From NCBI GenBank assembly GCA_951406725.2, contig OX597816.1, positions 142,538,001-142,602,000 of the forward strand: a DNA stretch of 64,000 nt, read 5' to 3'. Position numbers and translations under genes: made by a program. This document shows, one piece after another, positions 1-26,594 of this stretch (the first letter of the stretch is position 1; each line of letters starts with the position of its first letter). The notes under the pieces were generated by a model, which was not told where the DNA came from, ran no database searches, and worked only from the letters and a program-made list of their open reading frames with translations. Source of the DNA: Octopus vulgaris (taxonomy: Eukaryota).

Positions 1-166
1 CACCAGCTATAATATAATGTTAAAAAATACAAAAATAACTTGCAAAAAGATTTACCTAGAAATTATAAGACAACAGGTGCAAGAAAAACATATCTGACAA
101 GCACTACTGCTCATAAAGCTTATTGAAAAATGAAGTAAAGAAAATAGGACATCAATGGTATCTTAC

Positions 167-351
167 CATCCCTTCAAGGACTTTACCAAAAACAACATGG
201 CGTCCATCAAGCCACTCAGTTATCTTAGTGGTAATGAAGAACTGTGAACCATTTGTATCTTTGCCAGCATTTGCCATCGACAGCCAGCCAGCTCCATAGT
301 GTTTTAGCTTGAAGTTTTCATCAGAGAATTTCTCACCATATATACTGACAC
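167..351 (-). CDS. PPIB: Cyclophilin B copy L, exon 4 (exon 5 outside window)
   Basis: Matches copy R exon 4 except synonymous AAG>AAA and GAC>GAG (ITDW>ITEW); splice sites intact. Confidence 0.95.
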
Positions 352-2471
352 CTAAGTGGAATCAATGAAAATAGATATTATATAAAGGTAGTAAATCAGA
401 AATAGCAACAATCTAAAAAGAAGGGTGATAGGATAGTGGTGGTTATGGTAAAATAGTGAATCCAGAATAAATTATCCAATTAGAAAAAGATCAAAAATTG
501 ATTAACCATTTTCCCTTTAGCAGTTTTGGCATCAAGGCAGGTTGCATTTAAAAATTCAAATATTTACATGAAAGACATAGCCGTTTTAAATCACAATTTT
601 TAGTGTCTTTATTATTAGATTTCTGGCAAAGTATACTGAGGTTTCCTTATCAAAGGATGTGTATTTGGCTTTTAATTGGATTCAAAAAGGTAAGGCAGTG
701 GTCATGACTTTTACAGGCCTCAACTGACTGGTGACATTGATTCTAAGAAGGACTAAGCAAAGTATTTGGCAAGTATTGAGACAGTAGAGATGACAAGAAG
801 AGAGAACAAAAGCTTGCTAGTTCAGAGGAATAGAAGCCATTATAGTAACAGGAGAGGAGATTTCAGTTACTAGCTCACAGAATGCCTATGAGCATTTGTC
901 AATCAACTGAAAAGGTTTAGAATGTTTACGTAAATTGTAACAGCAGCAATGTCCTGTACAGATAAGGGGTGTTTTAATGTTGGTCACACTTGAGCTTTGT
1001 AGAAGATCAGCCCAAAACAGGGATGCTGTCACAGTGTAATCTGCTACTCTTTTGATAGAAGTATTAACATTCATTTTGACATTAATACAAAAGCCAATGC
1101 TTTTAGGGATAGAAAAACAAGGAGGTATTTAAATTCTATATTTTATTGAGAGACATTAGCCTTGCAAATGAAATTGGCAGTCTCATCATATCCTTTCAGT
1201 GTAGTCTTTTGTACAATACATCTGATTCCTCTTATATTCCATTTTTCTTTTAGATTATTTCCACATACATCAGAACAGACTTGCCTCCATTTCTTTCCAT
1301 CCTTAATACATTTTCTGCATTCAATGTCCATTTTTTACTACCATGTAATATGTACTTTGTAATATCAAGAATCATACAATTTACCATTCACTTGTAGAAA
1401 GAATCCCTTTCTTGCCAAATCTTTTCCACTTTACTTATTCTGGATAGTTTGCTTTTAGAAAAGTCCCTATCGCTACTGATTTGGCCACCTAGGAAACAAG
1501 CTGTCGACTATATTTTGGGAACCTGACTGTCTTTGTAAACCAATTTATGATGTTGTGAACCTGTAGTTTATATGTGGTACACAGTACAGAATTCCTTCTT
1601 ACTCCTACTGAGTGTGGCCACCTCCCAGATTCTAGAGTCAAGTCTTCCATCTGCAATTTTTGTCATTGCTTTCAAGCCACTCAGTTCTAAACTTCCCTTC
1701 CACATATGGAATTTCTCTCATTCTTACATAGATTCAGCTAGAAGATCTAAATAAGTCATCAGTATATGGAAGTTTCCACAATCAGCCAGTCTTAAGCTCC
1801 TCTGCTGTTGTCTGTAAAACTATAATAGACAAGAGTGTGCTGAGAGCTAAGGCCTTTTAACATACAGCTGAACTCTAAATTCCTTCCTGAATTCATGTTA
1901 ATACTCACCTTGTGTACATCATGTCTGTACATGGTTAGAATGGTTCTCAAAAGCAATTCATCTCTTAGCTTCCTTTATGACACAAGAACAAAGAGTACCC
2001 TATGGAAAGCCTTATCCACTTCAGGGAATGGTAGCACTGGTGCTCCATCCTAGTACAAACTCAAACACTCACCTAAACTAAATATCTTAATTCATTGCAT
2101 TTTAACTAAATAGGATGTTCTATTTCACCAGATAATTTTCTTTCCATTGTATAGCCATCAACTGCAGTTGCTGATTGATCCCTATGGAAAGTCTAATTGG
2201 GCTCTCTTCTTTGCACTCTTCATTTCATAACATCCCTCAGTAGCATTAGCATTTTCATGCCTCTTTTTGACATCAGTGAACACCAGTATGCTGCTGTTAC
2301 TACACAACTTCACTCCAAAGCATCCTGATTTATACCAATATACTGCTTAGCAATCCAAAACACATCATGCCTCAGATCATTACAGAACATCAGCAAACTC
2401 TTTAGATTTTCTGTTAGCTACCTGCTTTTTTTTCCAGGTTTTTCTCTAACTGTGCAACAGAAAATACTTAC

Positions 2472-2577
2472 CTCCAGTTCCATCACCTTTGGTGAAATCA
2501 CCACCTTGGATCATAAATGCAGGAATGACACGATGAAAAGAACTTCCCTTATATGTTAATGGTTTATCACCTTTGGT
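2472..2577 (-). CDS. PPIB: Cyclophilin B copy L, exon 3
   Basis: Identical to copy R exon 3; AG/GT sites intact. Confidence 0.95.
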
Positions 2578-3536
2578 CTGAAAAGAAATTAAAAGCATTC
2601 AAGTTAACATATTGCAAAAAGATAGATAACAACCAAGTTAATATCACTCACATCAATTGTTTTACAGCTAAGTAAAAACTTATTGTATCATATTTATAAG
2701 ATTGCCTGGTAAAAGAGCTAAAATATGCTATATAGTAGTATTCTGTTGACATTCCATTTGCATATAAACATACTTTCATTAAGTCTGACTAGATGAAATA
2801 GAAGAATTAGACGCTTCCTTATTCACAGTGCTATACCAATTTTTCAGCATATTGAACCAAAGAGAAAAATGATTTACCAAGCAATATTACTGCTTCATTA
2901 TGTGAGCTAAGAATCAACACTAGTTATATCTCAATTGGTGTTTACTTATCACGTTCAGATTTCCAAATGAGTTAATCCACAATATTCAAATTAAGGTATT
3001 ACACTGACAAATTTCTTTCCAGTTCATTTAATATTCTAGATGTACAACTGTCCACAACAGTTGACATTCTTTCAACAGGACATCAAAGTTGAATGAACAG
3101 AGATAAAGTTGTTCTTAAATACAATTACAAAAGTTACATAAAGGCATCAGCCAGCTCTTAAATATTTTGACAAAAAAAAAAAAAATTTCTATTTCCAACA
3201 CTTCAAAAGTGACTGAAGCAGTTACGAGTCACCTTCTCTAACACCATGAGTCTCTTTCTGCAATCACCACTATATTTTCTGCATAGCCAGATCTACTGTG
3301 ACCTACTTTCCTAAGTCCTCCACTTTCAGAAATGTGGTATAAAAAATGGTATTTTGCATACAATACACCAATCTTCTGGCTAAATCACCTGTCCATCATT
3401 ACTAACTGACTATTCTCTTGGGTTGGCAAGATCAAACTATTTACTAAATAGCAATGTGGATCATGTGTGTATGTGTGGTCTTCAGCATTCAATTTTTTTA
3501 ATTTTTAATGATTAAAATTCAGAAATATAGGATTAC

Positions 3537-3653
3537 CATAGTTCCTTCAGCTAAAGTTTTGAAATTTTTGACGGTTTTAGGAACAGTCTTGCCAAACAGT
3601 CCAATCACAATTCGACCAGCAGGCTTATCACCAATCTTTATGTCAAAAAAGAC
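3537..3653 (-). CDS. PPIB: Cyclophilin B copy L, exon 2
   Basis: Identical to copy R exon 2; AG/GT sites intact. Confidence 0.95.
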
Positions 3654-4379
3654 CTGGTAAAAATAAGAAACAAAAAATGTGTGTATAAACTTATACACAT
3701 AGAAAGTACATGTAATCTCAAAAGTGGCTAGCTTGATATGTAGGAAAGGAGTTGGTAAGAACTTGATATTGTATATTCAGTGGAATATGCCTGCATATGT
3801 ATACCCATGTTTTAACATTGGTAATATACCTGTAGTATAATATGGATACTCTTACCCTTCATAGACTTATTTTAACTCTGATTCAGCTAAATGTTGTATA
3901 TACATATATATACACAATATATATGGATAGCTATATATACACAATATATATGGATAGCTATATAAACACAATATATATGGATATATATATATATATATAC
4001 ACAATATATATGGATTTATACACACAAAATATATAAGTACACACACACATATACATGCATATATACATACACACAGACATACATACATACATGCAAACAG
4101 GCATACATATACACAAACAGACATATATACACACAAACAAGGATATATACACATGCAAATATACACTTACATATATACACATACACACATATATCCATAC
4201 ATATATGCTGTAATTGAGATCTATTGACATGCTGTACTTGAGGAAACCTATTGAATCCAGTAACATCAAAATTAAATCCAATGAAAACTGTACTTGTGGC
4301 CGATGCCAGTGCTGCCTGACTGGCTCCCTCTGCCTGTAGCACATAAAATCCACCATCCTAACTTGGTCGATGCCAGCAA

Positions 4380-5813
4380 CTCCAGCCCCCAACACAACTG
4401 GCTCCTCTGCCGGAAGCACGTAAAAAGCACCATCCAAACATGGGCGATGCCAGTACCATGTGACTGGAACTCATGCCAACTACATGGAGTGGTTGGCGTT
4501 AGGAAGGGCATCCAACTGTAGAAACATTGCCACATCAGATTGGAACCTCGTGCAGTAACCTGGATAGCCAGTCATCATATATATACATACATAGACACAC
4601 ATATATACACCCATATATATATACACACACACATGTGAAATTTACAAAAAAACAAAAGATGAAGACAGGTATATAAACAAATAGGTGTACTAGTTTGATA
4701 CTTGGGAAGGTGAGTAAGTCTTTTATGTTTCAAGCCTATGCTCTTCAATAGAAAGGGACACAAGGAAATAAACAGAGAGATTTAAAAAATCATAGCAACT
4801 GTTTGGAAGAAGGCAGTTAGACAGGAGAGCTAGGAAGAAGGGGAAATAATAAAGTACTGGTGATCCCAAAATGAAGGTGTGCATGCCTGTATGTGAGAGT
4901 GCAATTATGTGCATGTGGAGAGGGCCTAGTGACATTGACGTGTGGGGTGACGTGATGTGGTGGGGGATTGTGAGAATGGCATGTGGGTTTGGGGTGAGGA
5001 TGGGTTGGGGTATGTGGGAGAGGAATATGGATGGAATGGGCATACATACACATGTATATACATATAATAATGATTCTTGATAGAATCAGGTACTTAAGAA
5101 TATGCACTTGGTCGTGTTGGATAAACCTCCAGCCCCCCACACAACTGGCTCCTCTGCCAGAAGCACGTAAAAAGCACCATCCAAACATGGGCAATGCCAG
5201 TACCACGTGACTGGCACTCGTGCCAACTGCATGGAGTGGTTGGCGTTAGGAAGGGCATCCAACTGTAGAAACATTGCCACATCAGATTGGAACCTACTGC
5301 AGTAACCTGGTTACCCAGTCATCATATATATACATACATATACACACATACACACACATGTGAAATTTACAAAAAAACAAAAGATGAAGCAGGTGTATAA
5401 ACAAGTAGGTGTACTAGTTTGATACTTGGGAAGGTGAGTAAGTATTTTATGTTTCAAGCCTATGCTCTTCAATAGAAAGGGACACAGGGAAATAAACAGA
5501 GAGAATTAAAAAACCATAGCAACTGTTTGGAAGAAGGGGAAATAATAAAGTACTGGTGATCCCAAAACGAAGGTGTGCATGCCTGTATGTGAGAGTGTAA
5601 TTATGTGCATGTGGAGAGGGCCTAGTGACGTTGACGTGTGGGGTGATGTGATGTGGTGGGGGATTGTGAGGATGGGTTGGGGTATGTGGGCATGGAATGT
5701 GTGGGAGTGGAATATGGATGGAATGGGTATACATACACATGTAAATACATATAATAATGATTCTTGATAGAATCAGGTACTTAAGAATATGCACTTGGTC
5801 GTGTTGGATAAAC
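4380..5813. repeat. Tandem duplication (~747 + ~687 bp), left arm only
   Basis: 4380-5126 repeated at 5127-5813 (paired ORFs 4272/5094, 4817/5447); single copy at ~20880-21350. Confidence 0.9.
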
Positions 5814-6298
5814 CTGTGATCACCACATACCAGAACGATATTCAGGATGTGTATACAGAGAAAACCACTTCTAAGAGTATTAAGCGTCAAGGGGCTGGCC
5901 CAAAGTACATGGTGTATTGATCATACATTGTTTAGTATACTCCATGGTGTCCAACTTATCATGAATCCCTATGGTGTATTATAAACAAATGAATAATAAC
6001 AGATGATGGATAAATGTCAGTTCATTACAGCCATTTCTTATACGTTTTTTATAGAAGAAATGAGTAAATTACATCACTTCAAAACAAAAGACCATAACCA
6101 TCAGATGAAACAATTTCAAAGCTATAGCGTATCTTGGATATTCTATTGTTTTGAAATTATGTTTTATCTGATGATAATGGACTTTTTCAAGTGATGTAAC
6201 GTACTCATTTTTCTATTACAAATGTGTAAGAAACAGTTGTAATGAGCTGACATTTGTCCATCGTTTGCTATTATTTGCTTATATATTATATATATGTA

Positions 6299-6668
6299 CT
6301 AGCAGTATTGCCCAGCGTTACTCAGGTTTGTAAGGGAAATAACTATAAAGCATTTTTAGAGAGTTATAGCCAAAAAATAGCAAAAAAATGGAGAAAAAAT
6401 GGTAAATTTTTTTTTAAATCGTTGACTCATCATAGACATTTTTAGAGAGTTACTTCCCTTATATAATAGCGAAAAAATGCATTAAAATGGGAACAAAATG
6501 GTAAATTATTTTAAAAACCGTAGACGCGCGCTAATACCCAGAAGGGCTCGATATGAATCACGACTATATGATACTCGGTTTTGGTTAAACTGCACCACAA
6601 AATGTGGGAGTAGTTAGGAATCTAAATCGTAGGAGACAGACACACAACCTCACTTTTATATATGAAGA
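6299..6668 (-). mobile_element. Non-autonomous Helitron (left arm only)
   Basis: 5' TC..TATATAAAA, 3' imperfect GC hairpin then CTAG, inserted between A and T, no TSD; empty site at ~20385. Confidence 0.75.
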
Positions 6669-8115
6669 TATATAATTGGGAATTGAAAAAGAGTAATTTC
6701 CTACATACTTCACTTTAATAAATGTTCTCCAATGTGTACCTGTTGGTGAAATATAAGTTTAGATTTACAAGAAAGTGATTTTTCAATTTTTATATTTGAA
6801 AGGCTCCCCATGTGTAGTTGTGCGTTAATACACTGTTGCTGAGCAACTAGTTCCCATGTGTCACACAATGAAGTTGTTCTTCAAAGTCTATTCATTTGTT
6901 GATGATAAAGCTAAAATTCTGAATGAAATGAAAGTTTTCCCACATACTTCATAGTTAAACAACTTTTTCTCTGGTGTGCATTATATTTTGTTAAAAGATT
7001 GAGGCAAATGATTTCCTACTTGTTTTATGAAAGACAATGTCTACCTTGATGGAATTTGAACTCAGAATGTAAAGAGAGAAGAAATGCTGAAAACAATAAT
7101 AATAGATGGTTGGTGGCTAGCATCACAGAAAAAAAAAGAAACTGAAGAATTGTGATGATAGAATTTATGGAATTAAAACAAAGTAATGGCTAGTAGACAG
7201 CTGATCATCATGTGTAGGAGATTGTGAAACTTGGTTGATAGCGAATATATGATTTGGTGCTAGAAGTCTCCACACATACACAACAGCCTTCTGATACTGT
7301 AAACACACATAGACAATTCCTGAAGCAGGCCATGGAGATACAGTCATAGGTACACAGCGTTTCTAAAATAGTAATAATTATAACCATAGTAATTATAATA
7401 GCTATGAAAATTGCAACAATAAAAGCTGCAAACTATGGCACATAGTGTTTTTTTTGCGGGGTGGGGGGGATCAGTTCAATACTTCAATCCCAGTGATTGA
7501 CTGATACTCATTCCATTAACCTTGAAAGAATGAAGGTATATTTGACCTCCATAGTATTGGAACTCATAATGCAAAGAGCCAGAAAAAAATGTCGCTCAGC
7601 CCCTTTTCTGCCAGTTTGCCACCTTAATATCAATAATATACAACATAAAATAAAAAGGACCCATGTCCTTCAGTTTCTTCTTTCCTTTCTTCTTGTGATG
7701 CTGACCACTAGCTGTCTATTACCATTTTTTCTTAATGTTTTTTTACTACCTTTGTTTCTGGTCTTATTAAATAAAAAAACAACAGCACAGTTAAAACAAT
7801 TGTTATAATCTTTTGGAAAAATGAAAATACAAAGAAAAAAATAGATGTATTAAATCAGTGTACCTTACATCACACTTGGTTTCTTTAGAGGAAAATGAGA
7901 AAAGTAGATTTTTAACAGTACTGCGCAAGAAAGACTGACAGATATACAGGGTGTTTAGGATAAATCTTACAATTATTTTATGTCTCCTTTTTACAGAAAT
8001 AGTTTGATGTATTGAAAGAGTCAATGGCATTAGAAATTATAAAGATAAATGTTGAGGTTGAGAAAAAGTTAGCTGACCTGGAAGATTGGAAACCATCTGA
8101 GTCAATTACTGTGTT

Positions 8116-8290
8116 ATGATATGCACCAGGTATCCAAATGCTGACATCATGATTGCTGCTCAATTATCTATGAACTTTGTAAAGGCTGTAAAATGTGACG
8201 TGGATAGCTGCAACCGAGACTGTGAAGCTGTAGCCAGCATGAAGGGACACAGCAAGTGTTCTGTGTCTGTACACCAGAATTCATCTCCAC
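8116..8290 (+). mobile_element. Tc1/mariner-superfamily transposase N-terminal relic (mirror 18766-18940, minus)
   Basis: MICTRYPNADIMIAAQLSMNFVKAVK..VDSCNRDCEAVAS.K.HS resembles the HTH N-terminus of invertebrate Tc1/maT-type transposases (recognition only). Confidence 0.4.
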
Positions 8291-10393
8291 ATCTTTGAAC
8301 AGGGTCTTAAACTCAATTTAGTTGGCTATGTGAAGCTGCTGGAGCCTATAGTCAATCCCTGACTCGAAAGGATTGCTGCAGGAAGGCTAAATATGTGGCA
8401 GCAGGATTCAGTTCCTTGCCATGCCTCCAGAAAGTGTCAGAAGTGGTAGTCAGAGAATTTCTACGACTTTACCAACCCCAATTTTTGGTCTCTTAATTCT
8501 ACCAATTGTAATCCCATACTATGGGATTACCTGTGAGGGGCGTAGTTGAGAAATGCAACAACTGTTCTACCCGAAACACCAAGAACAAGCTGGTGGCCAA
8601 GATCAAGGGGTTCGAAGATCTTCCCAGAGATACAGAGAGATAGGCATGTGCTAGATTCCAGAGCTGTCTTGAGGCCAGCTACTTTGAGTAAATTATCTCC
8701 CAGCAATAATCTAGTCATTATTTTAAGAATATTTTTTTTTAATACTTTTATTTTTGAATGGGATATTATGTTTTCTGTTCTTTTTATCCAAACTGTTAAA
8801 TTTAGCCTGAACACACTATAGCAGTAAGAATCAGATCGGGCAAGAAGACACGGTAATGAGACTATATGGAGAGGTGAAATTGTTGCAGGTGGATGAAGAA
8901 TGAGGGTATCAGATTATATATAATTATTCACTTCCCGTTTTAAGTTGGTACAATTCCGTACTGTTTCTGAAATTAAAAGTATCACTACTCATAGACGCAC
9001 GATTTTAATTCTTTTGTTCTGGTAAATGAATGCGATCACGCTGGGATTTTATCGTCGTAAAAGGTTTATTTGATCAAATCGACTAAAATAACCAAAGTAA
9101 GGATAAGTTTTTCGCCTACTTTTTATTATTACACCGCCAGTGTTCAGCGGGCTTTTTAATTTTTACCCATATCGTAATTTCGTGTACTTTTTAGATAAGT
9201 TTTACTGTTACACCCGTCACTTTAAAAATAAGTAGTGGGCTCGATTTGAGTGACTAAACCCTTTACGGCAATGCCCCAGTTTGGCCAAGTCAACTACTGA
9301 ATAATGAAATGTGTGTACGTGTGTAAGAAAAGTGACAGTTTCAGAAAGTAAAAATGCACCATCTCAAAGAGGTGGGAAGTATACGTATCTTCTAGAGAAA
9401 ATACTGGGTATCTCAAATAAACCAAAGCTATCTCATAATATACAGGAAACGTGGAGTGACTAGGACACGTCGGTGAAGCCTACATTTAGACTTTTGTCAG
9501 TTTCAACGTACGCCTTTAGTCGGTCCAACGAAAGTCTCTGAATTGTGAGCAAATAATTGGGTCTTTATACCCTTAGCGTAAATTTCAGGTAAACTAACCG
9601 TAAAATAGTTACAACCATTGCTCAAACTGCTCGAAATAGCAGCCGAATTCCCTCCGATACACTATTCTTGATATAGAAATAGGAGAAAAATAACCCATTG
9701 CATACAGATTATTTAATAGAATTTGAAGCTGAGAATTCACTCTGTCGATACTGGAGTTCCTCATTAAGTGCGAACTATCTGCAGATAGCACGTAGCAAGA
9801 AAATGTTGTAGTAGACCGTATCAGAAGTATTGAACGAGTGTGTGCGTTTATACACATACACTATATATACATTACAGTATAGATATATGGTATAGCTGTC
9901 GTCAGACAAATGAAATTCATACGAATTCAATGAAAATAATTAAGCGAATATCTCTTTTCATGCACATCTGTTAAAACAGATGTTGCTTATAAATGAAGTG
10001 CTTGCACACGAATTTAACTTTTGTGGTCGTTAATGATTAATATGAAAAATATTAAATAAAGTGATTGCGTTTGTCTTGCTTTGTCTAAAACGAAGTTACA
10101 GAGCGTTCATCCCAGTAGACTTGTTCATATAAAACAGTGTTTCACAGCAAAGGAATATGAGAATCGGTAGAGCATCGAATCAAATATTTTACAGTATGTA
10201 GTTATATCTTTTTATATTCCCAGTTCAAATCCGACTTAGCCCTAAAACCGGGTGTGCGTATTTTTTTCTTTCGCCAAATACTGAGTTAGAATCAACTGTT
10301 CCCTCCCCCACAAACAGCTTGTGTTTTTATGCTAAAAAAAAAATCAATTATTTATTGTATATGTAATAGCAGTTGCAGAAAAAGTCTACTTAC

Positions 10394-10489
10394 TTTATCA
10401 GTGACTTTAGGTCCTTTAGGTTTGGCTGTAGTAGACAAGAAAGCCGGAATTAGAGAGAGAAACAACACAAACGACAACAACTTCATCAT
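10394..10489 (-). CDS. PPIB: Cyclophilin B copy L, exon 1
   Basis: Reverse complement of 16433-16528; same translation, intact GT donor. Confidence 0.92.
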
Positions 10490-10955
10490 GATGTAGAAAT
10501 ATCGCCGACGCCGGTGTGAAATGTTACAATAGTCAAGCACTCGTTCCATAAATAAGTAGCACCGGTGCTGTATGAATAGCGCGGTAGTCGGATCAAATAA
10601 TCTAAATACTGAATTAGCTGTTATTACATTTTATTTCTCCCTTAGAACGATTAGAGAAAACGGATCAAAAGGAAAAGATCCGTCTTGGCGATTTAATTAT
10701 GAAATAAAAGCCCGGTAAAATTTCGCTTTTTACCGAAACAATTTCAAATACACGCGCCAGCTAAACACTTCATTCAAGAAACGACACGTCACTTTTACTT
10801 CTGACGTTACACCGGTCTATCAATAGCAACGTTGATGGAAACAAGAAAGCTTCTGGGTGGTCATTCGAAATAGCAGCTATATCTCTCTTACGTTGCTTAA
10901 GATATTTCTAGATGCACCATACCTGAAAATAAGACTAGTTGGTCATATTTTTGAT

Positions 10956-11040
10956 GGCGGAAGTAAAGAATACGCACACCACCCGTTTTCGGCCTAACGC
11001 TAACACTAAACACCAGGTGTGCGTATTCTTTACCTTCGCC
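10956..11040. mobile_element. 85-bp MITE with 25-bp TIRs (other copies 11591-11674, partial ~10245-10275; mirrors 15585-15669, 14978-15060, ~16646-16675)
   Basis: GGCGRARGTAAAGAATACGCACACC ... GGTGTGCGTATTCTTTACCTTCGCC. Confidence 0.8.
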
Positions 11041-14540: not shown

Positions 14541-14730
14541 AGGATCTTTTCCTTTTGATGGACGGAATTTTCTAGTTAACTAAACAATTTGAAACTTCGT
14601 ATACTGTTAGAATGTGTCAAAAGAAAACAATATTGTAAACAAAATTGTAATTTGTAAGTTTAACGTAGTTTAATTCTTTCAAATTGTTTAGTTAACTAGA
14701 AAATTCCGTCCATCAAAAGGAAAAGATCCT
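14541..14730. mobile_element. MITE-like fold-back: perfect 54-bp inverted repeat with 82-bp loop, at the palindrome apex
   Basis: 14541-14594 AGGATCTTTTCCTTTTGATGG...TTTGAAA is the exact reverse complement of 14677-14730; terminal GGATCTTTTCCTTTTGAT recurs at ~16243 and ~10664. Confidence 0.7.
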
Positions 14731-15372: not shown

Positions 15373-15380
15373 TGACGTGG
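15373..15380 (+). promoter_or_regulatory. UPRE-like motif TGACGTGG upstream of PPIB copy R (mirror CCACGTCA 11245-11252)
   Basis: Exact match to the XBP1/ATF6 UPRE consensus TGACGTGG/A upstream of an ER foldase; 8-mer only. Confidence 0.35.
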
Positions 15381-16432
15381 TAAGGATTTTCAGATCTTGC
15401 TGGGTAGAAGCACATTTAATGCCTCAACCACTCCCTTATTAACTGTCATAAAAGGGCTGGAGAAATTTTACACACAAAAACGATTGCCCTACTTCACCTC
15501 CCTATACTCCTATTTACTCTGTGGACCAAAGAAATAAATAATTGACAAATCAGGTTCAGTGAACTATCCTGTGGAAGAAGATTCGGCGAAGGTAAAGAAT
15601 ACGCACACCTGGTGTTTAGTGTTAGCGTTAGGCCGAAAACGGGTGGTGTGCGTATTCTTTACTTCCGCCATCAAAAATATGACCAACTAGTCTTATTTTC
15701 AGGTATGGTGCATCTAGAAATGTCTTAAGCAACGTAAGAGAGATATAGCTGCTATTTCGAATGACCACCCAGAAGCTTTCTTGTTTCCATCAACGTTGCT
15801 ATTGATAGACCGGTGTAACGTCAGAAGTAAAAGTGACGTGTCGTTTCTTGACCGGTGTAACGTCAGAAGTAAAAGTGATGTGTCGTTTCTTGAATGAAGT
15901 GTTTAGCTGGCGCGTGTATTTGAAATTGTTTCGGTAAAAAGCGAAATTTTACCGGGCTTTTATTTCATAATGATGTTTCATAATTAAATTTTAATATCTA
16001 AATGCTGCTATTTATAGCAGATATTGACATCGGTGATTATTTGTTAGAGAAATTAAACTTTGAAAAGTGTTGTATAGTAATAAAAGAATTGCGACAATAG
16101 GCGCAAGCGTGGCTGTCTAACAAGAAGCTTGCGTCCCTACCAGATGACTTCGAGTTCGGTCCCAATGCGTGAAACCTTGGGCTGGTATTTTCTACAATAG
16201 ATTCGGGTCGACCAAAGCCTTGTGAGTTGATTTGGGAAAGACGGATCTTTTCCTTTTGATCCGTTTTCTCTAATCGTTCTAAGGGAGATAAAATGTAATA
16301 ACAGCTAATTCAGTATTTAGATTATTTGATCCGACTACCGCGCTATTCATACAGCACCGGTGCTACTTATTTATGGAACGAGTGCTTGACTATTGTAACA
16401 TTTCACACCGGCGTCGGCGATATTTCTACATC

Positions 16433-16528
16433 ATGATGAAGTTGTTGTCGTTTGTGTTGTTTCTCTCTCTAATTCCGGCTTTCTTGTCTACTACAGCCAA
16501 ACCTAAAGGACCTAAAGTCACTGATAAA
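16433..16528 (+). CDS. PPIB: Cyclophilin B copy R, exon 1 (signal peptide + KPKGPKVTDK)
   Basis: ATG ATG at 16433; MMKLLSFVLFLSLIPAFLSTTAKPKGPKVTDK = hydrophobic signal peptide + CypB N-terminal GPKVT.K motif; followed by donor GTAAGT at 16529. Confidence 0.93.
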
Positions 16529-19500
16529 GTAAGTAGACTTTTTCTGCAACTGCTATTACATATACAATAAATAATTGATTTTTTTTTTAGCATAAGCACA
16601 CTAGCTGTTTGTGGGGGAGGGAACAGTTGATTCTAACTCAGTATTTGGCGAAAGAAAAAAATACGCACACCCGGTGTTTAGGGCTAAGTTGGATTTGAAC
16701 TGGAAATATAAAAAGATATAACTACATACTGTAAAATATTTGATTCGATGCTCTACCGATTCTCATATTCCTTTGCTGTGAAACACTGTTTTATATGAAC
16801 AAGTCTACTGGGATGAACGCTCTGTAACTTCGTTTTAGACAAAGCAAGACAAACGCAATCACTTTATTTAATATTTTTCATATTAATCATTAACGACCAC
16901 AATAATTGATAGAAAAAAAATCTTAACCACATTACTTCTACTGGTAAAAGTTAGATTCGTGTGCAAGCACTTCATTTATAAGCAACAAAATTTGTTTTAA
17001 CAGATGTGCATGAAAAGAGATATTCGCTTAATTATTTTCATTGAATTCGTATGAATTTCATTTGTCTGACGACAGCTATACCATATATCTATACTGTAAT
17101 GTATATATAGTGTATGTGTATAAATGCACACACTCGTTCAATACTTCTGATACAGTCTACTACAACATTTTCTTGCTACGTGCTATCTGCAGATAGTTCG
17201 CACTTAATGAGGAACTCCAGTATCGACAGAGTGAATTCTCAGCTTCAAATTCTATTAAATAATCTGTATGCAAAGGGTTATTTTTCTCCTATTTCTATAT
17301 CAAGAATAGTGTATCGGAGGGAATTCGGCTGCTATTTCGGGCAGTTTGAGCAATGGTTGTAACTATTTTACGGTTAGTTTACCTGAAATTTACGCTAAGG
17401 GTATAAAGACCCAATTATTTGCACACAATTCAGAGACTTTCGTTGGACCGACTAAAGGCGTACGTTGAAACTGACAAAAGTCTAAATGTAGACTTGACCG
17501 ACGTGTCCTAGTCACTCCACGTTTCCTGTATATTATGAGATAGCTTTGGTTTATTTGAGATACCCAGTATTTTCTCTAGAAAATACGTATACTTCCCACC
17601 TTTTTGAGATGGTGCATTTTTACTTTCTGAAACTGTCACTTTTCTTACACACGTACACACATTTCATTCTTCAGTAGTTGACTTGGCCAAACTGGGGCAT
17701 TGCCGTAAAGGGTTTAGTCAATCAAATCGACCCCACTACTTATTTTTAAAGTGACGGGTGTAACGGTAAAACTTATCTTAAAAGTACACGAAATTATGAT
17801 ATGGGTAAAAATTAAAATATTTTGAACAAAAAAAAATTTCACAGAAGGAAACCACCACCCTTGCTATTTTCCTTCTCCATGAGGTCACAATAACTATTCC
17901 GAAAGCCCGCTGAACACTGGCGGTGTAATAATAAAAAGTAGGCGAAAAACTTACCCTTACTTTGGTTATTTTAGTCGATTTGATCAAATAAACCTTTTAC
18001 GACGATAAAATCCCAGCGTGGTCGCATTCATTTACCAGAACAAAAGAATTAAAATCGTGCGTCTATGAGTAGTGATACTTTTAATTTCAGAAACAGTACG
18101 GAATTGTACCAACTTAAAACGGGAAGTGAATAATTATATATAATCTGATACCCTCATTCTTCATCCACCTGCAACAATTTCACCTCTCCATATAGTCTCA
18201 TTACCGTGTCTTCTTGCCCGATCTGATTCTTACTGCTATAGTGTGTTAAGGCTAAATTTAACAGTTTGGATAAAAAGAACAGAAAACATAATATCCCATT
18301 CAAAAATAAAAGTATTAAAAAAAATATTCTTAAAATAATGACTAGATTATTGCTGGGAGATAATTTACTCAAAGTAGCTGGCCTCAAGACAGCTCTGGAA
18401 TCTAGCACATGCCTATCTCTCTGTATCTCTGGGAAGATCTTCGAACCTCTTGATCTTGGCCACCAGCTTGTTCTTGGTGTTTCGGGCAGAACAGTTGTTG
18501 CCTTTCTCAACTACGCCCCTCACAGGTAATCCCATAGTATGGGATTACAATTGGTAGAATTAAGAGACCAAAAATTGGGGTTGGTAAAGTCGTAGAAATT
18601 CTCTGACTACCACTTCTGACACTTTCTGGAGGCATGGCAAGGAACTGAATCCTGCTGCCACACATTTGGCCTTCCTGCAGCAATCCTTTCGAGTCAGGGA
18701 TTGACTATAGGCTCCAGCAGCTTCACATAGCCAACTAAATTGAGTTTAAGACCCTGTTCAAAGATGTGGAGATGAATTCTGGTGTACAGACACAGAACAC
18801 TTGCTGTGTCCCTTCATGCTGGCTACAGCTTCACAGTCTCGGTTGCAGCTATCCACGTCACATTTTACAGCCTTTACAAAGTTCATAGAGAATTGAGCAG
18901 CAATCATGATGTCAGCATTTGGATACCTGGTGCATATCATAACACAGTAATTGACTCAGATGGTTTTCAATCTTCCAGGTCAGCTAACTTTTTCTCAACC
19001 TCAACATTTATCTTTATACTTTCTAATGCCATTGACTCTTTCAATACATCAAACTATTTCTGTAAAAAGGAGACATAAAATAATTGTAAGATTTATCCTA
19101 AACACCCTGTATATCTGTCAGTCTTTCTTGCGCAGTACTGTTAAAAATCTACTTTTCTCATTTTCCTCTAAAGAAACCAAGTGTGATGTAAGGTACACTG
19201 ATTTAATACATCTATTTTTTTCTTTGTATTTTCATTTTTCCAAAAGATTATAACAATTGTTTTAACTGTGCTGTTGTTTTTTTATTTAATAAGACCAGAA
19301 ACAAAGGTAGTAAAAAAACATTAAGAAAAAATGGTAATAGACAGCTAGTGGTCAGCATCACAAGAAGAAAGGAAAGAAGAAACTGAAGGACATGGGTCCT
19401 TTTTATTTTATGTTGTATATTATTGATATTAAGGTGGCAAATGGCAGAAAAAGGGCTGAGCGACATTTTTTTCTGGCTCTTTGCATTATGAGTTTCAATA

Positions 19501-20029
19501 CTATGGAGATCAAATATACCTTCATTCTTTCAAGGTTAATGGAATGAGTATCAGTCAATCACTGGGATTGAAGTATTGAACTGATCCCCCCCACCCCGCA
19601 AAAAAAAACACCATGTGCCATAGTTTGCAGCTTTTATTGTTGCAATATTCAAAGCTATTATAATTACTATGGTTATAATTATTACTATTTTAGAAATACT
19701 GTGTACCTTTGACTGTATCTCCATGGCCTGCTTCAGGAATTGTCTATGTGTGTTTACAGTATCAGAAGGCTGTTGTGTATGTGTGGAGACTTCTAGCACC
19801 AAATCATATATTCGCTATCAACCAAGTTTCACAATCTCCTACACATGATGATCAGCTGTCTACTAGCCATTACTTTGTTTTAATTCCATAAATTCTATCA
19901 TCACAATTCTTCAGTTTCTTTTTTTTTCTGTGATGTTAGCCACCAACCATCTATTATTATTGTTTTCAGCATTTCTTCTCTCTTTACATTCTGAGTTCAA
20001 ATTCCATCAAGGTAGACATTGTCTTTCAT

Positions 20030-20380
20030 AAAACAAGTAGGAAATCATTTGCCTCAATCTTTTAACAAAATATAATGCACACCAGAGAAAAGTTGTTTAA
20101 CTATGAAGTATGTGGGAAAACTTTCATTTCATTCAGAATTTTAGCTTTATCATCAACAAATGAATAGACTTTGAAGAACAACTTCATTGTGTGACACATG
20201 GGAACTAGTTGCTCAGCAACAGTGTCTTAACGCACAACTACACATGGGGAGCCTTTCAAATATAAAAATTGAAAAATCACTTTCTTGTAAATCTAAACTT
20301 ATATTTTACCAACAGGTACACAATGGAGAACATTTATTAAGGTGAAGTATGTAGGAAATTACTCTTTTTCAATTCCCAAT
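20030..20380 (+). pseudogene. Decayed C2H2 zinc-finger array in PPIB intron 1 (mirror ~6680-7025, minus)
   Basis: MHTREKLFNYEVCGKTFIS from 20075; LIFYQQVHNGEH..EVCRK near 20300-20360; broken by stops/frameshifts. Confidence 0.55.
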
Positions 20381-21459
20381 TATATATGCATATATATAAT
20401 ATATAAGCAAATAATAGCAAACGATGGACAAATGTCAGCTCATTACAACTGTTTCTTACACATTTTTAATAGAAAAATGAGTACATTACATCACTTGAAA
20501 AGACCATTATCATCAGATAAAACATAATTTCAAAACAATAGAATATCCAGGATACGCTATAGCTTTGAAATTGTTTCATCTGATGGTTATGGTTTTTTTT
20601 TTAAAGTGATGTAATTTACTCATTTCTTCCATAAAAAATGTATAAGAAATGGCTGTAATGAACTGACATTTATTCATCATCTGTTATTATTCATTTGTTT
20701 ATAATACACCATAGGGATTCATGATAAGTTGGACACCATGGAGTATACTAAACAATGTATGATCAATACACCGTGTACTTTGGACCAGCCCCTTGACGCT
20801 TAATACTCATAGAAGTGGTTTTCTCTGTATGCACAACCTGAATATCGTTCTGGATATTTAATTGACCAAAGGTGGTGATCACAGGTTTATCCAACACGAC
20901 CAAGTGCATATTCTTAAGTACCTGATTCTATCAAGAATCATTATATATATATACATGTGTATGTATACCCATTCCATCCATATTCCACTCCCACATACCC
21001 CACTCCCACACATTCCATGCTCACATACCCCCAACCCATCCTCACCCCAAACCCACATGCCATCCTCACAATCCCCCACCACATCACATCACTCCACATG
21101 CACATAATTACACTCTCACATACAGGCATGCACACCTTCGTTTTGGGATCACCAGTACTTTATTATTTCCCCTTCTTCCAAACAGTTTGTATGATTTTTT
21201 AATTCTCTCTGTTTATTTCCCTGTGTCCCTTTCTATTGAAGAGCATAGGCTTGAAACATAAAATACTTACTCAGCTTCCCAAGTATCAAACTAGTACACC
21301 TATCTTCATCTTTTGTTTTTTTGTAAAAATGACTGGGTAACCAGGTTACTGGCATCGGCCACAAGTGCAGTTTTCATTGGATTTAATTTTGATGTTACTA
21401 GATTAAATAGGTTTCCTCAAGAACAGCGTGTCAATAGATCTTCTCAATTACAGCATATA

Positions 21460-21767
21460 TCTCTCTCTATATAAACGGCAGTTTGTCTGTGCGTGTTTCT
21501 GTGTGTCTGTTTTCTCGTACCCTCACCCTGACCACGGCTTTCAACCGATTCTGATGAAACTTGACACACACATAGCCCAATGTCATAATTCAAAACTAAC
21601 GCAGCGAAAATTTTGAAAAGTTCCCCCAGTTCTGAAAAAAATCGATAAATTCGACATGGGGTCCAGAATCAAAAGAAACAAACCACAGACTGTCTAGGGG
21701 ACGCAACTCAACCTTTTTTTACTCTCAAAAAAAATTTACCATCATTTTTTTCCATTTTTTTGCTTTT
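21460..21767 (+). mobile_element. 3'-truncated Helitron-like element (right arm only)
   Basis: 5' TCTCTCTCTATATAAA + GTCT/GT-rich tract; shares AAAATTTACCAT..TTTTTCCATTTTTTTGCT with the 6299-6668 element; flanked by a 58-bp direct repeat. Confidence 0.65.
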
Positions 21768-21995
21768 TTAAATAGGTTTCCTCAAGAACAGCGTGTCAAT
21801 AGATCTTCTCAATTACAGCATATATGTATAAATATATGTGTGTATGTATATATGTAAGTGTATATTTGCATGTGTATATATCCTTGTTTGTGTGTATATA
21901 TGCCTGTTTGTGTATATGTATGCCTGTTTGCATGTATGTATGTATGTGTGTATGTATATATGCATTATATATATGTGTGTGTGTACTTGTGTATA

Positions 21996-22218
21996 CTCTC
22001 TTACTCTTTATTCTCTTACTTGTTTCAGTCATTTGACTGTGGCCATGCTGGAGCATCGCTTTTAATCGAACAGCTTGACCCCAGGACTTATTCTTTTGTA
22101 AGCCCAGTACTTATTCTATCGGTCTCTTTTGCCGAACCGCTAAGTAAAGGGGACACAAACACACCAGCATCGGTTGTCAATCAATGCTAGGGGAACAGAC
22201 ACACAAACACACACACGC

Positions 22219-22249
<31 letters not shown>

Positions 22250-22418
22250 TACGCCGGGCTTCTTTCAGTTTCTGTCTACCAAATCCACTCACAAGGCTTT
22301 GGTCGGCCCAAGGCTATAGTAGAAGACACTTGCCCAAGGTGCCACGCAGTGGGACTGAACCCGGAACCATGTGGTTGGTAAACAAGTTACTTACCACACA
22401 GCCAATCCTGCGCCTATG
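21996..22418 (-). mobile_element. Full-length tRNA-derived SINE (right arm only)
   Basis: Head GGCGCAGGATTGGCTGTGTGG (A box) ..GGTTCAGTCCC (B box); 3' GCATGGCCACAGTCAAATGACTGAAACAAG(TAAGAG)n; absent at ~4035. Confidence 0.85.
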
Positions 22419-22754
22419 TATGTATATATTCTTCATATATTTTGTGTGTATATATCCATATATATTGTGTATATATATATCCATATATATATTGTGTATA
22501 TATATGTATGTATATGTATATACAACATTTAGCTGAATCAGAGTTAAAATAAGTCTGTGAAGGATAAGAGTATCCATATTATACTACAGGTATATTACCA
22601 ATGTTAAAACATGGGTATACATATGCAGGCATATTCCACTGAATATACAATATCAAGTTCTTTCCTACATATCAAGCTAGCCACTTTTGAGATTACATGT
22701 ACTTTCTATGTGTATAAGTTTATACACACATTTTTTGTTTCTTATTTTTACCAG

Positions 22755-22871
22755 GTCTTTTTTGACATAAAGATTGGTGATAAGCCTGCTGGTCGAATTG
22801 TGATTGGACTGTTTGGCAAGACTGTTCCTAAAACCGTCAAAAATTTCAAAACTTTAGCTGAAGGAACTATG
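22755..22871 (+). CDS. PPIB: Cyclophilin B copy R, exon 2
   Basis: ccag|GTC...ATG|gtaat; [39 protein letters not shown]; phase 0/0. Confidence 0.96.
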
Positions 22872-23870
22872 GTAATCTTATATTTCTGAATTTTAATCAT
22901 TAAAAATTTAAAAATTTGAATGCTGAAGACCACACATACACACATGATCCACATTGCTATTTAGTAAATATTTTGATCTTGCCAACCCAAGAGAATAGTC
23001 AGTTAGTAATGATGGACAGGTGATTTAGCCAGAAGATTGGTGTATTGTATGCAAAATACCATTTTTTATACCACATTTCTGAAAGTGGAGGACTTAGGAA
23101 AGTAGGTCACAGTAGATCTGGCTATGCAGAAAATATAGTGGTGATTGCAGAAGGAGACTCATGGTGTTAGAGAAGGTGACTCGTAACTGCTTCAGTCACT
23201 TTTGAAGTGTTGGAAATAGAAATATTTTTTTTTTGTGTCAAAATATTTAAGAGCTGGCTGATGCCTTTATGTAACTTTTGTAATTGTATTTAAGAACAAC
23301 TTTATCTCTGTTCATTCAACTTTGATGTCCTGCTGAGAGAATGTCAACTGTTGTGGACAGTTGTACATCTAGAATATTAAATGAACTGGAAAGAAATTTG
23401 TCAGTGTAATACCTTAATTTGAATATTGTGCATTTGCTGCATTATATGAAATCATGAATAGAAACATTGTGGATCAACTCATTTGGAAATCTGAACGTGA
23501 TAAGTAAACACCAATTGAGATATAACTAGTGTTGATTCTTAGCTCACATAATGAAGCAGTAATATTGCTTGGTAAATCATTTTTCTCTTTGGTTCATTTG
23601 CTGAGAAATTTGTATAGCACTGTGAATAAGGAAGCGTCTAATTCTTCTATTTCATCTAGTCAGACTTAATGAAAGTATGTTTATATGCAAATGGAATGTC
23701 AACAGAATACTACTATATAGCATATTTTAGCTCTTTTACCAGGCAATCTTATAAATATGATACAATAAGTTTTTACTTAGCTGTAAAACAATTGATGTGA
23801 GTGATATTAACTTGGTTGTTATCTATCTTTTTGCAATATGTTAACTTGAATGCTTTTAATTTCTTTTCAG

Positions 23871-23976
23871 ACCAAAGGTGATAAACCATTAACATATAAG
23901 GGAAGTTCTTTTCATCGTGTCATTCCTGCATTTATGATCCAAGGTGGTGATTTCACCAAAGGTGATGGAACTGGAG
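23871..23976 (+). CDS. PPIB: Cyclophilin B copy R, exon 3
   Basis: ttttcag|ACC...GGAG|gtaag; [35 protein letters not shown], containing the catalytic FHRVI/MIQGGD motifs. Confidence 0.97.
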
Positions 23977-24099
23977 GTAAGTATTTTCTGTTGCACAGTT
24001 AGAGAAAAACCTGGAAAAAAAAGCAGGTAGCTAACAGAAAATCTAAAGAGTTTGCTGATGTTCTGTAATGATCTGAGGCATGATGTGTTTTGGATTGCT

Positions 24100-25290
24100 A
24101 AGCAGTATATTGGTATAAATCAGGATGCCTTTGGAGTGAAGTTGTGTAGTAACAGCAGCATACTGGTGTTCACTGATGTCAAAAAGAGGCATGAAAATGC
24201 TAATGCTACTGAGGGATGTTATGAAATGAAGAGTGCAAAGAAGAGAGCCCAATTAGACTTTCCATAGGGATCAATCAGCAACTGCAGTTGATGGCTATAC
24301 AATGGAAAGAAAATTATCTGGTGAAATAGAACATCCTATTTAGTTAAAATGCAATGAATTAAGATATTTAGTTTAGGTGAGTGTTTGAGTTTGTACTAGG
24401 ATGGAGCACCAGTGCTACCATTCCCTGAAGTGGATAAGGCTTTCCATAGGGTACTCTTTGTTCTTGTGTCATAAAGGAAGCTAAGAGATGAATTGCTTTT
24501 GAGAACCATTCTAACCATGTACAGACATGATGTACACAAGGTGAGTATTAACATTAATTCAGGAAGGAATTTAGAGTTCAGCTGTATGTTAAAAGGCCTT
24601 AGCTCTCAGCACACTCTTGTCTATTATAGTTTTACAGACAACAGCAGAGGAGCTTAAGACTGGCTGATTGTGGAAACTTCCATATACTGATGACTTACTT
24701 AGATCTTCTAGCTGAATCTATGTAAGAATGAGAGAAATTCCATATGTGGAGGGGAGGTTTAGAACTGAGTGGCTTGAAAGCAATGACAAAAATTGCAGAT
24801 GGAAGACTTGACTCTAGAATCTGGGAGGTGGCCACACTCAGTAGGAGTAAGAAGGAATTCTGTACTGTGTACCCCATATAAACTACAGGTTCACAACATC
24901 ATAAGTTGGTTTATAAAGACAGTCAGGTTCCCAAAATATAGTCAACAGCTTGTTTCCTAAGTGGCCAAATCAGTAGCGATGGGGACTTTTCTAAAAGCAA
25001 ACTACCCAGAATAAGTAAAGTGGAAAAGATTTGGCAAGAAAGGGATTCTTTCTGCAAGTGAATGGTAAATTGTATGATTCTTGATATTACAAAGTACATA
25101 TTACATGGTAGTAAAAAATGGACATTGAATGCAGAAAATGTATTAAGGATGGAAAGAAATGGAGACAAGTCTGTTCTGATGTATGTGGAAATAATCTAAA
25201 AGAAAAATGGAATATAAGAGGAATCAGATGTATTGTACAAAAGACTACACTGAAAGGATATGATGAGACTGCCAATTTCATTTGCAAGGC
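24100..25290 (+). mobile_element. Highly decayed RTE-clade LINE in PPIB intron 3 (mirror at ~1160-2350, minus)
   Basis: STLLSIIVLQTTAEELKTG*LWKLPYTDDL (~24608-24700) resembles RTE SPLLFIIVL..ITEEFKTG.PWELLYADDL; downstream KG..L.V.GKLYD / LHGSK.W remnants. Confidence 0.65.
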
Positions 25291-25759
25291 TAATGTCTCT
25301 CAATAAAATATAGAATTTAAATACCTCCTTGTTTTTCTATCCCTAAAAGCATTGGCTTTTGTATTAATGTCAAAATGAATGTTAATACTTCTATCAAAAG
25401 AGTAGCAGATTACACTGTGACAGCATCCCTGTTTTGGGCTGATCTTCTACAAAGCTCAAGTGTGACCAACATTAAAACACCCCTTATATGTACAGGACAT
25501 TGCTGCTATTACAATTTACATAAACATTCCAAACCTTTTCAGTTGATTGACAAATGCTCATAGGCATTCTGTGAGCTAGTAACTGAAATCTCCTCTCCTG
25601 TTACTATAATGGCTTCTATTCCTCTGAACTAGCAAGCTTTTGTTCTCTCTTCTTGTCATCTCTACTGTCTCAATACTTGCCAAATACTTTGCTTAGTCCT
25701 TCTTAGAATCAATGTCACCAGTCAGTTGAGGCCTGTAAAAGTCATGACCACTGCCTTTA

Positions 25760-25871
25760 TCGTCGTTTAGCGTCCGTTTTCCATGCTAGCATGGGTTGGA
25801 CGGTTCTACTGGGGTCTGTGAAGCCAGAAGGCTTCATCAGGCCCAGTCAAATCTGGCAGTGTACCTACGGC
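25760..25871 (-). mobile_element. SINE 3' fragment (right arm only)
   Basis: CCAACCCATGCTAGCATGGAAAACGGACGCTAAACGACGAT tail on minus; empty site at ~692. Confidence 0.75.
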
Positions 25872-26212
25872 TACCTTTTTGAATCCAATTAAAAGCCAAA
25901 TACACATCCTTTGATAAGGAAACCTCAGTATACTTTGCCAGAAATCTAATAATAAAGACACTAAAAATCGTGATTTAAAACGGCTATGTCTTTCATGTAA
26001 ATATTTGAATTTTTAAATGCAACCTGCCTTGATGCCAAAACTGCTAAAGGGAAAATGGTTAATCAATTTTTGATCTTTTTCTAATTGGATAATTTATTCT
26101 GGATTCACTATTTTACCATAACCACCACTATCCTATCACCCTTCTTTTTAGATTGTTGCTATTTCTGATTTACTACCTTTATATAATATCTATTTTCATT
26201 GATTCCACTTAG

Positions 26213-26397
26213 GTGTCAGTATATATGGTGAGAAATTCTCTGATGAAAACTTCAAGCTAAAGCACTATGGAGCTGGCTGGCTGTCGATGGCAAATGCTGG
26301 CAAAGATACAAATGGTTCACAGTTCTTCATTACCACTAAGATAACTGACTGGCTTGATGGACGCCATGTTGTTTTTGGTAAAGTCCTTGAAGGGATG
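26213..26397 (+). CDS. PPIB: Cyclophilin B copy R, exon 4
   Basis: cttag|GT...ATG|gtaag; [62 protein letters not shown]; 185 nt restores phase. Confidence 0.97.
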
Positions 26398-26594
26398 GTA
26401 AGATACCATTGATGTCCTATTTTCTTTACTTCATTTTTCAATAAGCTTTATGAGCAGTAGTGCTTGTCAGAAATGTTTTTCTTGCACCTGTTGTCTTATA
26501 ATTTCTAGGTAAATCTTTTTGCAAGTTATTTTTGTATTTTTTAACATTATATTATAGCTGGTGTTACACTAAATTCTTGCTAATGTCTATTTGA

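Follow-up and report, generated by a model that had tools for sequence, protein, structure and literature searches.

The window, a stretch of 64,000 nucleotides of Octopus vulgaris DNA (contig OX597816.1, positions 142,538,001 to 142,602,000) with zero N, holds most of two complete five-exon cyclophilin B genes, which lie head to head, one in each arm of a palindrome, with start codons 5.9 kb apart. The left copy is on the reverse strand (coding part of exon 1, with a hydrophobic N terminus, 10394–10489; exon 2, 3537–3653; exon 3, 2472–2577; exon 4, 167–351), and its exon 5 was found upstream of position 1, at L001:9335–9469, where the earlier note had advised looking. The right copy is on the forward strand (exon 1, coding part, 16433–16528; exon 2, 22755–22871; exon 3, 23871–23976; exon 4, 26213–26397; exon 5, coding part and stop codon, 27095–27229). 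GT/AG sites are present at exons 1–4 of both copies, and the intact splice sites and 2 differences in 504 shared coding bases reported before were borne out. The complete coding sequences, 639 bases long, differ at 4 positions (codons 123, 152, 183 and 201), of which 3 are non-synonymous and 1 is synonymous, and two differences were noted in the 3′ UTR. One of the residue changes hits an Asp that is common to the five solved cyclophilin B chains compared.

The product contains a cyclophilin-type isomerase domain (PF00160, E = 9.6e-20). The best solved-structure matches of exons 4 and 5 are B-type or ER-type chains, nearer B than A, the C-terminal stretch aligns with solved cyclophilin B chains, and N-terminal hydropathy over the first 20 residues reaches 2.7, as for a signal peptide (calculated with a simple window, not a signal-peptide predictor). 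Judged from these sequence features, both genes are of the cyclophilin B (PPIB) type and are predicted to encode an ER foldase. When genome G000 was searched with exon 4 and with an intron stretch, each gave two matches above 80%, and a third gene copy was not found. A literature search on octopus cyclophilin B found nothing on topic.

In the assembly the palindrome measures 31.5 kb, larger than first noted, and ends 2.6 kb upstream of the window. Self-BLAST gave colinear reverse-complement blocks from 1–692/25872–26563 inward to 11580–11844/14804–15072 at 91%–99.6% identity, which confirms the giant inverted palindrome as a feature of the assembly; the arm alignment comprises 12,937 columns at ~1%–2% difference, so the likeness is far beyond chance. 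The left arm (reverse strand) occupies 1–14541 in the window; rather than being lost at the window edge, as had been feared, it continues for 2,579 bp (L001:7422–10000, containing exon 5) and ends at L001:7422, for a total of 17,120 bp including a LINE. The right arm (14730–28876, forward strand, 14,147 bp) begins directly after the last base of a transposon. Both arms thus exceed 10 kb (14.1 and 17.1 kb). The symmetry axis is not the apparent 3-kb "spacer": 11845–14400 is a left-arm LINE insertion without counterpart in the right arm, so the real axis is the 188-bp element at 14542–14729. The LINE (reverse strand) carries broken reverse-transcriptase frames (RVT_1, E = 3.8e-29) and a 4-bp target duplication, and has its family 5′ end at 14400; all 40 scored LINE copies match this 5′ end. 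Because arm homology resumes past it, the LINE was rejected as seed or centre of the palindrome.

The element at the apex is a non-autonomous DNA transposon: it has the ends GGATCTT, and its inverted arms, perfect over 53 bp, enclose an 82-bp loop. Folded as single-stranded DNA it reaches −61.6 kcal/mol (z = −16 versus 200 shuffles). Merlin elements have terminal inverted repeats of 24–462 bp that start with 5′-GG (PMC8101967), and target-site duplications of 8 or 9 bp are expected of them. The repeats of the apex family fit (53 bp here, ~137 bp in longer copies, GG ends). To sample the family, 34 loci were drawn from among the 40 best-scoring of 2,659 candidates, a choice that biases the sample to close copies; 26 were two-ended and 8 had one end found. 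An 8-bp target-site duplication was kept at 6 or more of 8 positions in 21 of the 26 two-ended copies (12 perfect, 9 with 6–7 of 8). At the apex copy this duplication is lost, the flanks matching at 2 of 8 positions. No DDE_Tnp_IS1595 transposase was found inside the 188-bp copy. G000 does contain elements that combine open IS1595-type frames with the same 7-bp motif at their ends; when two long copies were compared with two transposase loci, they matched no further than simple repeats. Since the transposase loci L026–L031 share only the 7-bp motif with the apex element, it is called Merlin-type rather than a proven Merlin member. Recurrent duplication at this family was rejected: none of the 26 two-ended copies among those best-scoring 40 of 2,659 anchors another inverted duplication on its ends.

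On the left side only, the transposon is flanked by 90 bp of single-copy DNA (14452–14541; one match in G000). The right arm begins immediately past the terminal repeat; 7 of its first 8 bases agree with a site lying 90 bp into the left flank. At its outer end, 28876, the right arm is joined by 2-bp microhomology to a 670-bp direct duplication (28877–29548, forward strand), a same-orientation copy of L001:6205–7046 that is 3.0% diverged and carries a 167-bp deletion. This source, 1.2 kb beyond the left arm, belongs to a broken remnant of a Merlin/IS1595-type transposase. An independent transposon insertion was rejected as the origin of 28877–29548 because its closest match is this local source (96%, versus 65%–83% for other family copies). 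Past the shared gene end, the outer flanks are two different unique DNAs, one of them reached via the direct duplicate. All three junctions were resolved in sequence and are of biological type. The earlier reading, an inverted duplication that doubled the gene, holds for the assembly, where each cyclophilin B copy is complete and the three junctions are resolved; public sequencing data did not confirm that both copies sit on one chromosome.

Substitutions between the arms amount to 1.02% in the interior and to 3.0% and 3.8% at the ends (Fisher test under uniform rates, p = 6e-5 and 2e-4), and at least nine arm-specific indels of 27–370 bp were found in addition to the 2.6-kb LINE. With this much difference, the description of the duplication as "recent" is doubtful.

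Contig depth was taken from four public runs (X1, X4, X7 and X8) and is not a copy number, its sums being rough; the comparison covered arm, repeat and right centre flank depth. The right centre flank was at 0.54 and 0.62 of arm depth in X1 and X4, and at 1.08 and 0.91 in X7 and X8; X7 and X8 would then have either a single gene copy or a pair of arms that stay alike as far as the transposon. The proposed depth check thus gave a half-depth flank in two runs and lacked a clear 2:1 arm dose in the other two. Arm depth tracked repeat depth in all four runs (2.86 versus 3.06; 8.2 versus 9.0; 0.81 versus 0.88), which, on these rough sums, disfavours a duplication limited to organisms A and B. Absolute copy number from summed repeat depth was unusable because overlapping contigs overcount. 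Of the partial depths read by hand, 10 of 11 were at 0.44–0.63 of arm depth, values expected of simple heterozygosity. Sixteen of the 22 arm-variant rows examined showed the assembly's left-arm letter, so the arm differences are variants shared in other animals. X1 contigs mixed left- and right-arm states, and X7 differed from the arm at, for example, 12 of 972 bases. Distinct k-mer totals were 1.40 billion in X7 and 1.08 billion in X8, versus 1.54 and 1.64 billion. No molecule spanning the palindrome centre was seen in the public data. The more diverged ends and the mosaic states in X1 fit arm-to-arm conversion and also fit allelic recombination.

Taken together, the palindrome is probably real, with both gene copies on one chromosome. 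As to its origin, we tentatively favour aberrant transposition followed by a template switch, in which the 31.5-kb duplication may have arisen from a transposon end inserted back-to-front 90 bp away, the mirror chromosome being rescued by the switch. What the sequence itself shows is the mirror geometry with its 90-bp offset and exact-end junction, the loss of the target-site duplication at the apex copy and, at the outer right end, 2-bp microhomology leading into the short direct duplication. A junction at the exact terminal base, an inverted nearby target and an unmatched original target duplication are hallmarks of hybrid-element products, and all three are present. Transposase would have acted by hybrid element insertion or sister-chromatid transposition, joining one transposon end in inverted orientation to a site 90 bp off on the sister or homologous chromosome. 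The mirror chromosome would then have broken 14 kb out; it would have switched to forward template lying 1.2 kb upstream of where the arm ends, and a further jump or deletion would have reached the right flank. Later, the LINE insertion would have widened the centre to ~2.9 kb, and constraint on one cyclophilin B copy would have relaxed.

As described in reports on P element and Ac/Ds hybrid insertion and sister-chromatid transposition (PMC2775673, PMC3239180), those systems yield the same exact-end junction, inverted duplication and loss of the matched target-site duplication. The octopus element differs from them in being single and non-autonomous, with Merlin-type ends, in showing no excision footprint or reciprocal product, and in having its far junction made by a microhomology switch instead of by another transposon end. 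For the second half of the process, a report on inverted triplications (PMC10766186) describes one inverted-repeat junction plus one microhomology junction, which is the layout found here. Aberrant transposition, or hairpin fold-back, with template-switch rescue fits the locus, and both are already known mechanisms.

A possible, though rather unlikely, alternative is that the assembly represents one cyclophilin B locus twice, setting two structurally different haplotypes head to head with the self-complementary transposon as the join. Haplotype false duplication is a known assembly artefact. A transposon-insertion or inversion polymorphism between haplotypes would be an example of such a difference. 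Such a join agrees with a right centre flank that reaches full dose in X7 and X8, with an equal arm dose in all four runs and with partial depths near one half; the left-arm letters and mixed states described above, and a 1% arm divergence that resembles the distance to other animals' contigs, point the same way. The earlier note was right to raise an assembly artefact, and depth also fits allelic haplotypes; the window-edge worry behind part of that concern is gone. Such a join, however, requires a gapless overlap of 53–188 bp, and the two unique outer flanks, one reached through a 3% diverged duplicate, also stand against it. So does the 3:1 ratio of non-synonymous to synonymous coding differences, which has P = 0.014 at omega 0.1 and 0.08 at omega 0.2 and makes alleles under strong constraint unlikely. 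The X7 and X8 k-mer totals lie nearer the half-arm-depth expectation, slight evidence against the join that differing species and libraries confound. An artefact from a single fold-back read was rejected. Fold-back artefacts (PMC12870357) show the same mirror turn within 200 bp, and haplotype false duplications share the allelic-level divergence; fold-back arms are copies of one molecule, which leaves no room for a one-arm LINE, whereas the octopus arms carry different insertions with their own target duplications and the right arm exits through a resolved junction.

It is unlikely that the duplication is real and arose instead without transposase, from a fork or resected break folded on the 53-bp hairpin (ODIRA or microhomology-mediated break-induced replication). 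The stability of the element's fold would favour this origin, the interruptions of ODIRA junctions measure 40–80 bp (PMC10766186), near the 82-bp loop, and an eroded triplication would fit the direct duplication. Erosion of the symmetry would account for the LINE and two small deletions close to the centre. DUP-TRP/INV-DUP and ODIRA cases, as presented there, share the inverted-repeat junction, the 2-bp microhomology junction, the flanking direct duplication and a secondarily widened centre; the octopus locus differs in lacking a third copy and in having a transposon hairpin with a 90-bp offset as its centre. With ends 3%–4% diverged, it is not a de novo event, unlike those comparison cases. 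Fold-back alone predicts symmetry through the 90-bp flank, so an extra event ending exactly at the terminal repeat is needed, and G000 lacks the third gene copy. On this view fold-back gave an inverted triplication, from which the third copy and 90 bp next to the centre would later have been lost. Since an identical product results when fold-back is followed by a deletion stopping at the transposon end, this counts against the transposase reading, as does the lack of an end-anchored inverted duplication among the 26 other copies sampled.

A selected, sex-chromosome-like palindrome kept for dosage or germ-line function is highly improbable: its arms of more than 14 kb, a complete gene in each and an interior more alike than the ends would suit it, but primate X palindromes diverge by <0.2% (PMC8327919), while here large indels come on top of a 1% arm divergence, and the gene is a general ER foldase with a conserved Asp changed in one copy. 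The likeness to mammalian sex-chromosome palindromes drawn in the earlier note is structural only. The mammalian palindromes (PMC8327919; 10.1101/800185) share arms of >10 kb, a gene per arm and an unstable centre; the octopus differs in its ~99.0% arm identity, many indels, housekeeping gene and 182-Mb chromosome. Arm identity of >99% characterizes the sex-chromosome type (<0.2% divergence in primates), whereas the best part here differs by 1.02% and contains large indels.

Returning to transposition by a Merlin-type end, a broader history is quite doubtful: such an end might have catalysed this inverted duplication of a housekeeping gene before several octopus lineages split, with conversion keeping the arms alike and the centre eroding differently in each lineage. 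No Merlin-induced inverted duplication was found in a literature search for comparable aberrant transposition by the superfamily.

Either way, the mechanisms are of known kinds and the locus shows no new function. If it is an artefact, users of the reference annotation should be aware that a conserved gene has been falsely duplicated in the assembly. If real, it would be a base-resolved natural case of a DNA-transposon end making a complete head-to-head gene duplicate, with a Merlin-type element as the maker rather than P or Ac/Ds, and a test case for conversion-maintained palindromes outside mammalian sex chromosomes. In that case, though none of the 26 sampled copies repeats the event, thousands of such elements may offer the octopus a possible route of gene duplication.

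Self-comparison of the window, which contains no N letters, returned reverse-complement colinear blocks running from 1-692/25872-26563 to 11580-11844/14804-15072 at 91-99.6% identity, bearing out the colinear inverted arms claimed in an earlier note. The left arm, said there to run off the window edge, does reach position 1 but ends 2,579 bp upstream, at L001:7422 in the adjoining upstream DNA (L001:7422-10000; counterpart, 26564-28876). The total structure spans 31,455 bp, with arms of 17,120 bp (left) and 14,147 bp (right) on either side of a 188-bp centre; in the 2.8-Gb assembly (G000), the window is C3:142538001-142602000. Arm mismatches numbered 252 in 12,937 aligned columns for the whole alignment, and 113 in 11,117 (1.02%) without the centre-adjoining bin and the five 500-bp bins at 4000-6499, a stretch whose alignment is confounded by tandem and SINE differences; outside this stretch, nine indels of 27-370 bp are arm-specific. 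Mismatches in the centre-adjoining bin were 12/318 (3.8%, Fisher p 2e-4) and in the outer direct duplicate 20/669 (3.0%, Fisher p 6e-5), in a test that takes no account of natural divergence variation along the chromosome.

Each arm, upstream DNA included, contains five exons with intact GT/AG sites and a single open 212-residue frame. Their assignment to cyclophilin B was upheld by a PF00160 match for exon 4 and by cyclophilin B-type chains as the best solved-structure matches for exons 4 and 5. Exon 4 has two near-identical matches in the assembly, both at the palindrome, and 12 others at 44-74%. The copies differ at 4/639 coding bases (right to left: codon 123 silent, D152E, D183N and Q201E) and at two further positions in the first 688 bases of 3′ flank; residue 183 is Asp in 5/5 solved-chain alignments among those listed. 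The gene has 146 synonymous and 490 non-synonymous sites, for which the observed 3:1 is the neutral expectation; were the copies alleles under strong constraint, the probability of at least three replacements would be 0.014 at omega 0.1 and 0.08 at omega 0.2, on tiny counts. The sole ATTAAA/AATAAA signal within 27231-28900 (28794-28799) is 80 bp short of the outer arm end, a position from which the duplicated unit may end just beyond a long 3′ UTR. Small hairpin elements and GGATCTT-type ends cluster round the gene's 5′ region (10956-11040, 11591-11682, 14970-15062, 15586-15669, 10244-10279, 16643-16686, 10664-10681, 16243-16260), with one some 190 bp 5′ of each start codon. Elsewhere in the assembly, two other cyclophilin-type matches, at G000:C6:41485799 (+) and C6:41510534 (-), lie in opposite orientation, 25 kb apart.

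The apparent 3-kb spacer is mostly a LINE (RVT_1 match; family 5′ end at 14400) that inserted into the left arm, where a 4-bp target duplication flanks it, and arm homology picks up again past it (14401-14451 vs 14730-14803, with two small deletions). The centre is instead a 188-bp transposon (14542-14729; 53-bp perfect inverted ends, 82-bp loop; fold, -61.6 kcal/mol, z -16), separated from the resumed homology by 90 bp of single-copy DNA on the left side only. The right arm's first base directly follows the terminal repeat, and its first 8 bases agree at 7/8 positions with a site lying 90 bp into the left flank. The element's family has 2,659 candidates in the assembly, long copies being about 1.1-1.2 kb with 137-bp repeats. 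Target duplications were surveyed at 34 loci from the best-scoring 40 candidates; in the 26 copies with both ends, the 8-bp duplication was perfect in 12, 7/8 in 7, 6/8 in 2 and at most 4/8 in 5, and none of the 26 anchored an inverted duplication on its ends. The apex copy's flanks match at 2/8 positions. Merlin elements are defined, in an excerpt of PMC8101967, by GG ends and 8-bp duplications. At least 150 IS1595-type transposase matches were scored in the assembly; the family's 7-bp end motif recurs at 6/6 transposase loci read (four with common flanks, counted as one insertion). Apart from this motif, these six loci and the family have nothing longer in common, two long copies having matched two transposase loci only in simple repeats. 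The 308-residue open IS1595-type frames of four loci (L028-L031) on different chromosomes probably ride inside a larger repeat, because their flanking DNA is the same.

At the outer right junction, the arm end (28876) is joined via 2-bp microhomology to 28877-29548, a same-orientation copy of L001:6205-7046. This source belongs to a broken IS1595-type transposase remnant that lies 1.2 kb beyond the end of the left arm. Judged by its identity (96% to this local source vs 65-83% to other family copies), 28877-29548 is copied locally; it terminates in a small hairpin, eroded differently in the two copies.

As described in portions of PMC2775673 and PMC3239180, hybrid element insertion or sister-chromatid transposition joins an exact transposon end back-to-front to a nearby target, with loss of the target duplication; the palindrome shares the exact-end inverted junction to a nearby target and the lost duplication. 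A transposon end inserted in this way would create a mirror chromosome needing rescue afterwards, and a switch to the forward template 1.2 kb upstream would leave the direct duplicate at the outer junction. Inverted triplications, in an excerpt of PMC10766186, combine one inverted-repeat junction with one microhomology junction; the palindrome shares both types but lacks the third copy. The same layout would also result from fold-back at the 53-bp hairpin, provided that a later deletion took out 90 bp as far as the transposon end.

Other repeats were observed nearby. In the left flank, two related elements of 400 bp, each with a perfect 8-bp target duplication, lie at L001:5111-5520 and L005:1922-2318, an about 390-bp tandem duplication (identity 99.7%) at L001:3303-4088, and inverted pairs at L004:588-1226/1911-2531 (95% over 639 bp) and L002:6717-8295 (83-88% over about 415 bp). 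Older nested inverted repeats near the window's right end (62449-63730, 61862-62390, 61828-61875/63732-63779; L007:3-119) have self-complementarities of 87% and 76%. By its motifs, a 358-residue frame at 43642-44718 (+) resembles a LINE reverse-transcriptase end, and a fragment at 57028-57300 (+) resembles a mariner transposase.

Public runs covering part of 22700-29700 numbered 20 among those listed (11 studies, four organism labels), all short-read contigs. Four runs (X1, X4, X7 and X8; four labels, four studies) were compared over 10000-20300. Contig 14704-15004, passing from the terminal-repeat interior into the right arm, was present in 4/4 runs, with only 26-27 letters in the terminal repeat, short of the 31 letters required for bridging. 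As a ratio to arm-contig depth, this contig stood at 0.54 (X1), 0.62 (X4), 1.08 (X7) and 0.91 (X8). From run to run, arm depth tracks repeat depth (X1/X7, 2.86 vs 3.06; X4/X7, 8.2 vs 9.0; X8/X7, 0.81 vs 0.88), repeat depth being taken from 23 repeat-rich bins of 30 and contig depth being no copy number; the arm dose is therefore equal in all four, whether one or two per haploid genome. Hand-read partial depths lay at 0.44-0.63 of arm depth in 10/11. Distinct k-mer totals (1.54, 1.64, 1.40 and 1.08 billion for X1, X4, X7 and X8) are a weak hint that, in X7 and X8, arm depth exceeds genome-wide depth. The assembly's left-arm letter appeared in 16 of the 22 right-arm-contig variant rows used among 40 listed (set aside: 16 LINE rows, one repeat row and one given in left-arm coordinates; 169 further rows exist). 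Left and right states are mixed in X1, which, like the assembly, is dimorphic at the centre flank and at the 86-bp indel; because of its private differences, it is probably from another animal.

These run data can be accounted for in three ways: by alleles of a single locus; by a duplication with sequence exchange between its arms and, in two lineages, symmetry up to the transposon; or by a duplication found only in the assembled lineage. Two points speak against an assembly artefact: fold-back reads are copies of one molecule, as described in part of PMC12870357, and two haplotypes joined head to head would require a gapless merge on <190 bp and two different unique flanks. We consider the palindrome likely to be real.

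No report of cyclophilin B duplication in octopus, or of Merlin-induced inverted duplication, was found in the open-access literature, judged by listings, supplements aside. Compared with primate X palindromes, for which an excerpt of PMC8327919 gives arm divergence <0.2% and unstable centres, the octopus palindrome is looser, with a housekeeping gene in each arm. It is probably a real, well-resolved inverted gene duplication with a transposon at its centre; the kind is known, the trigger unusual.
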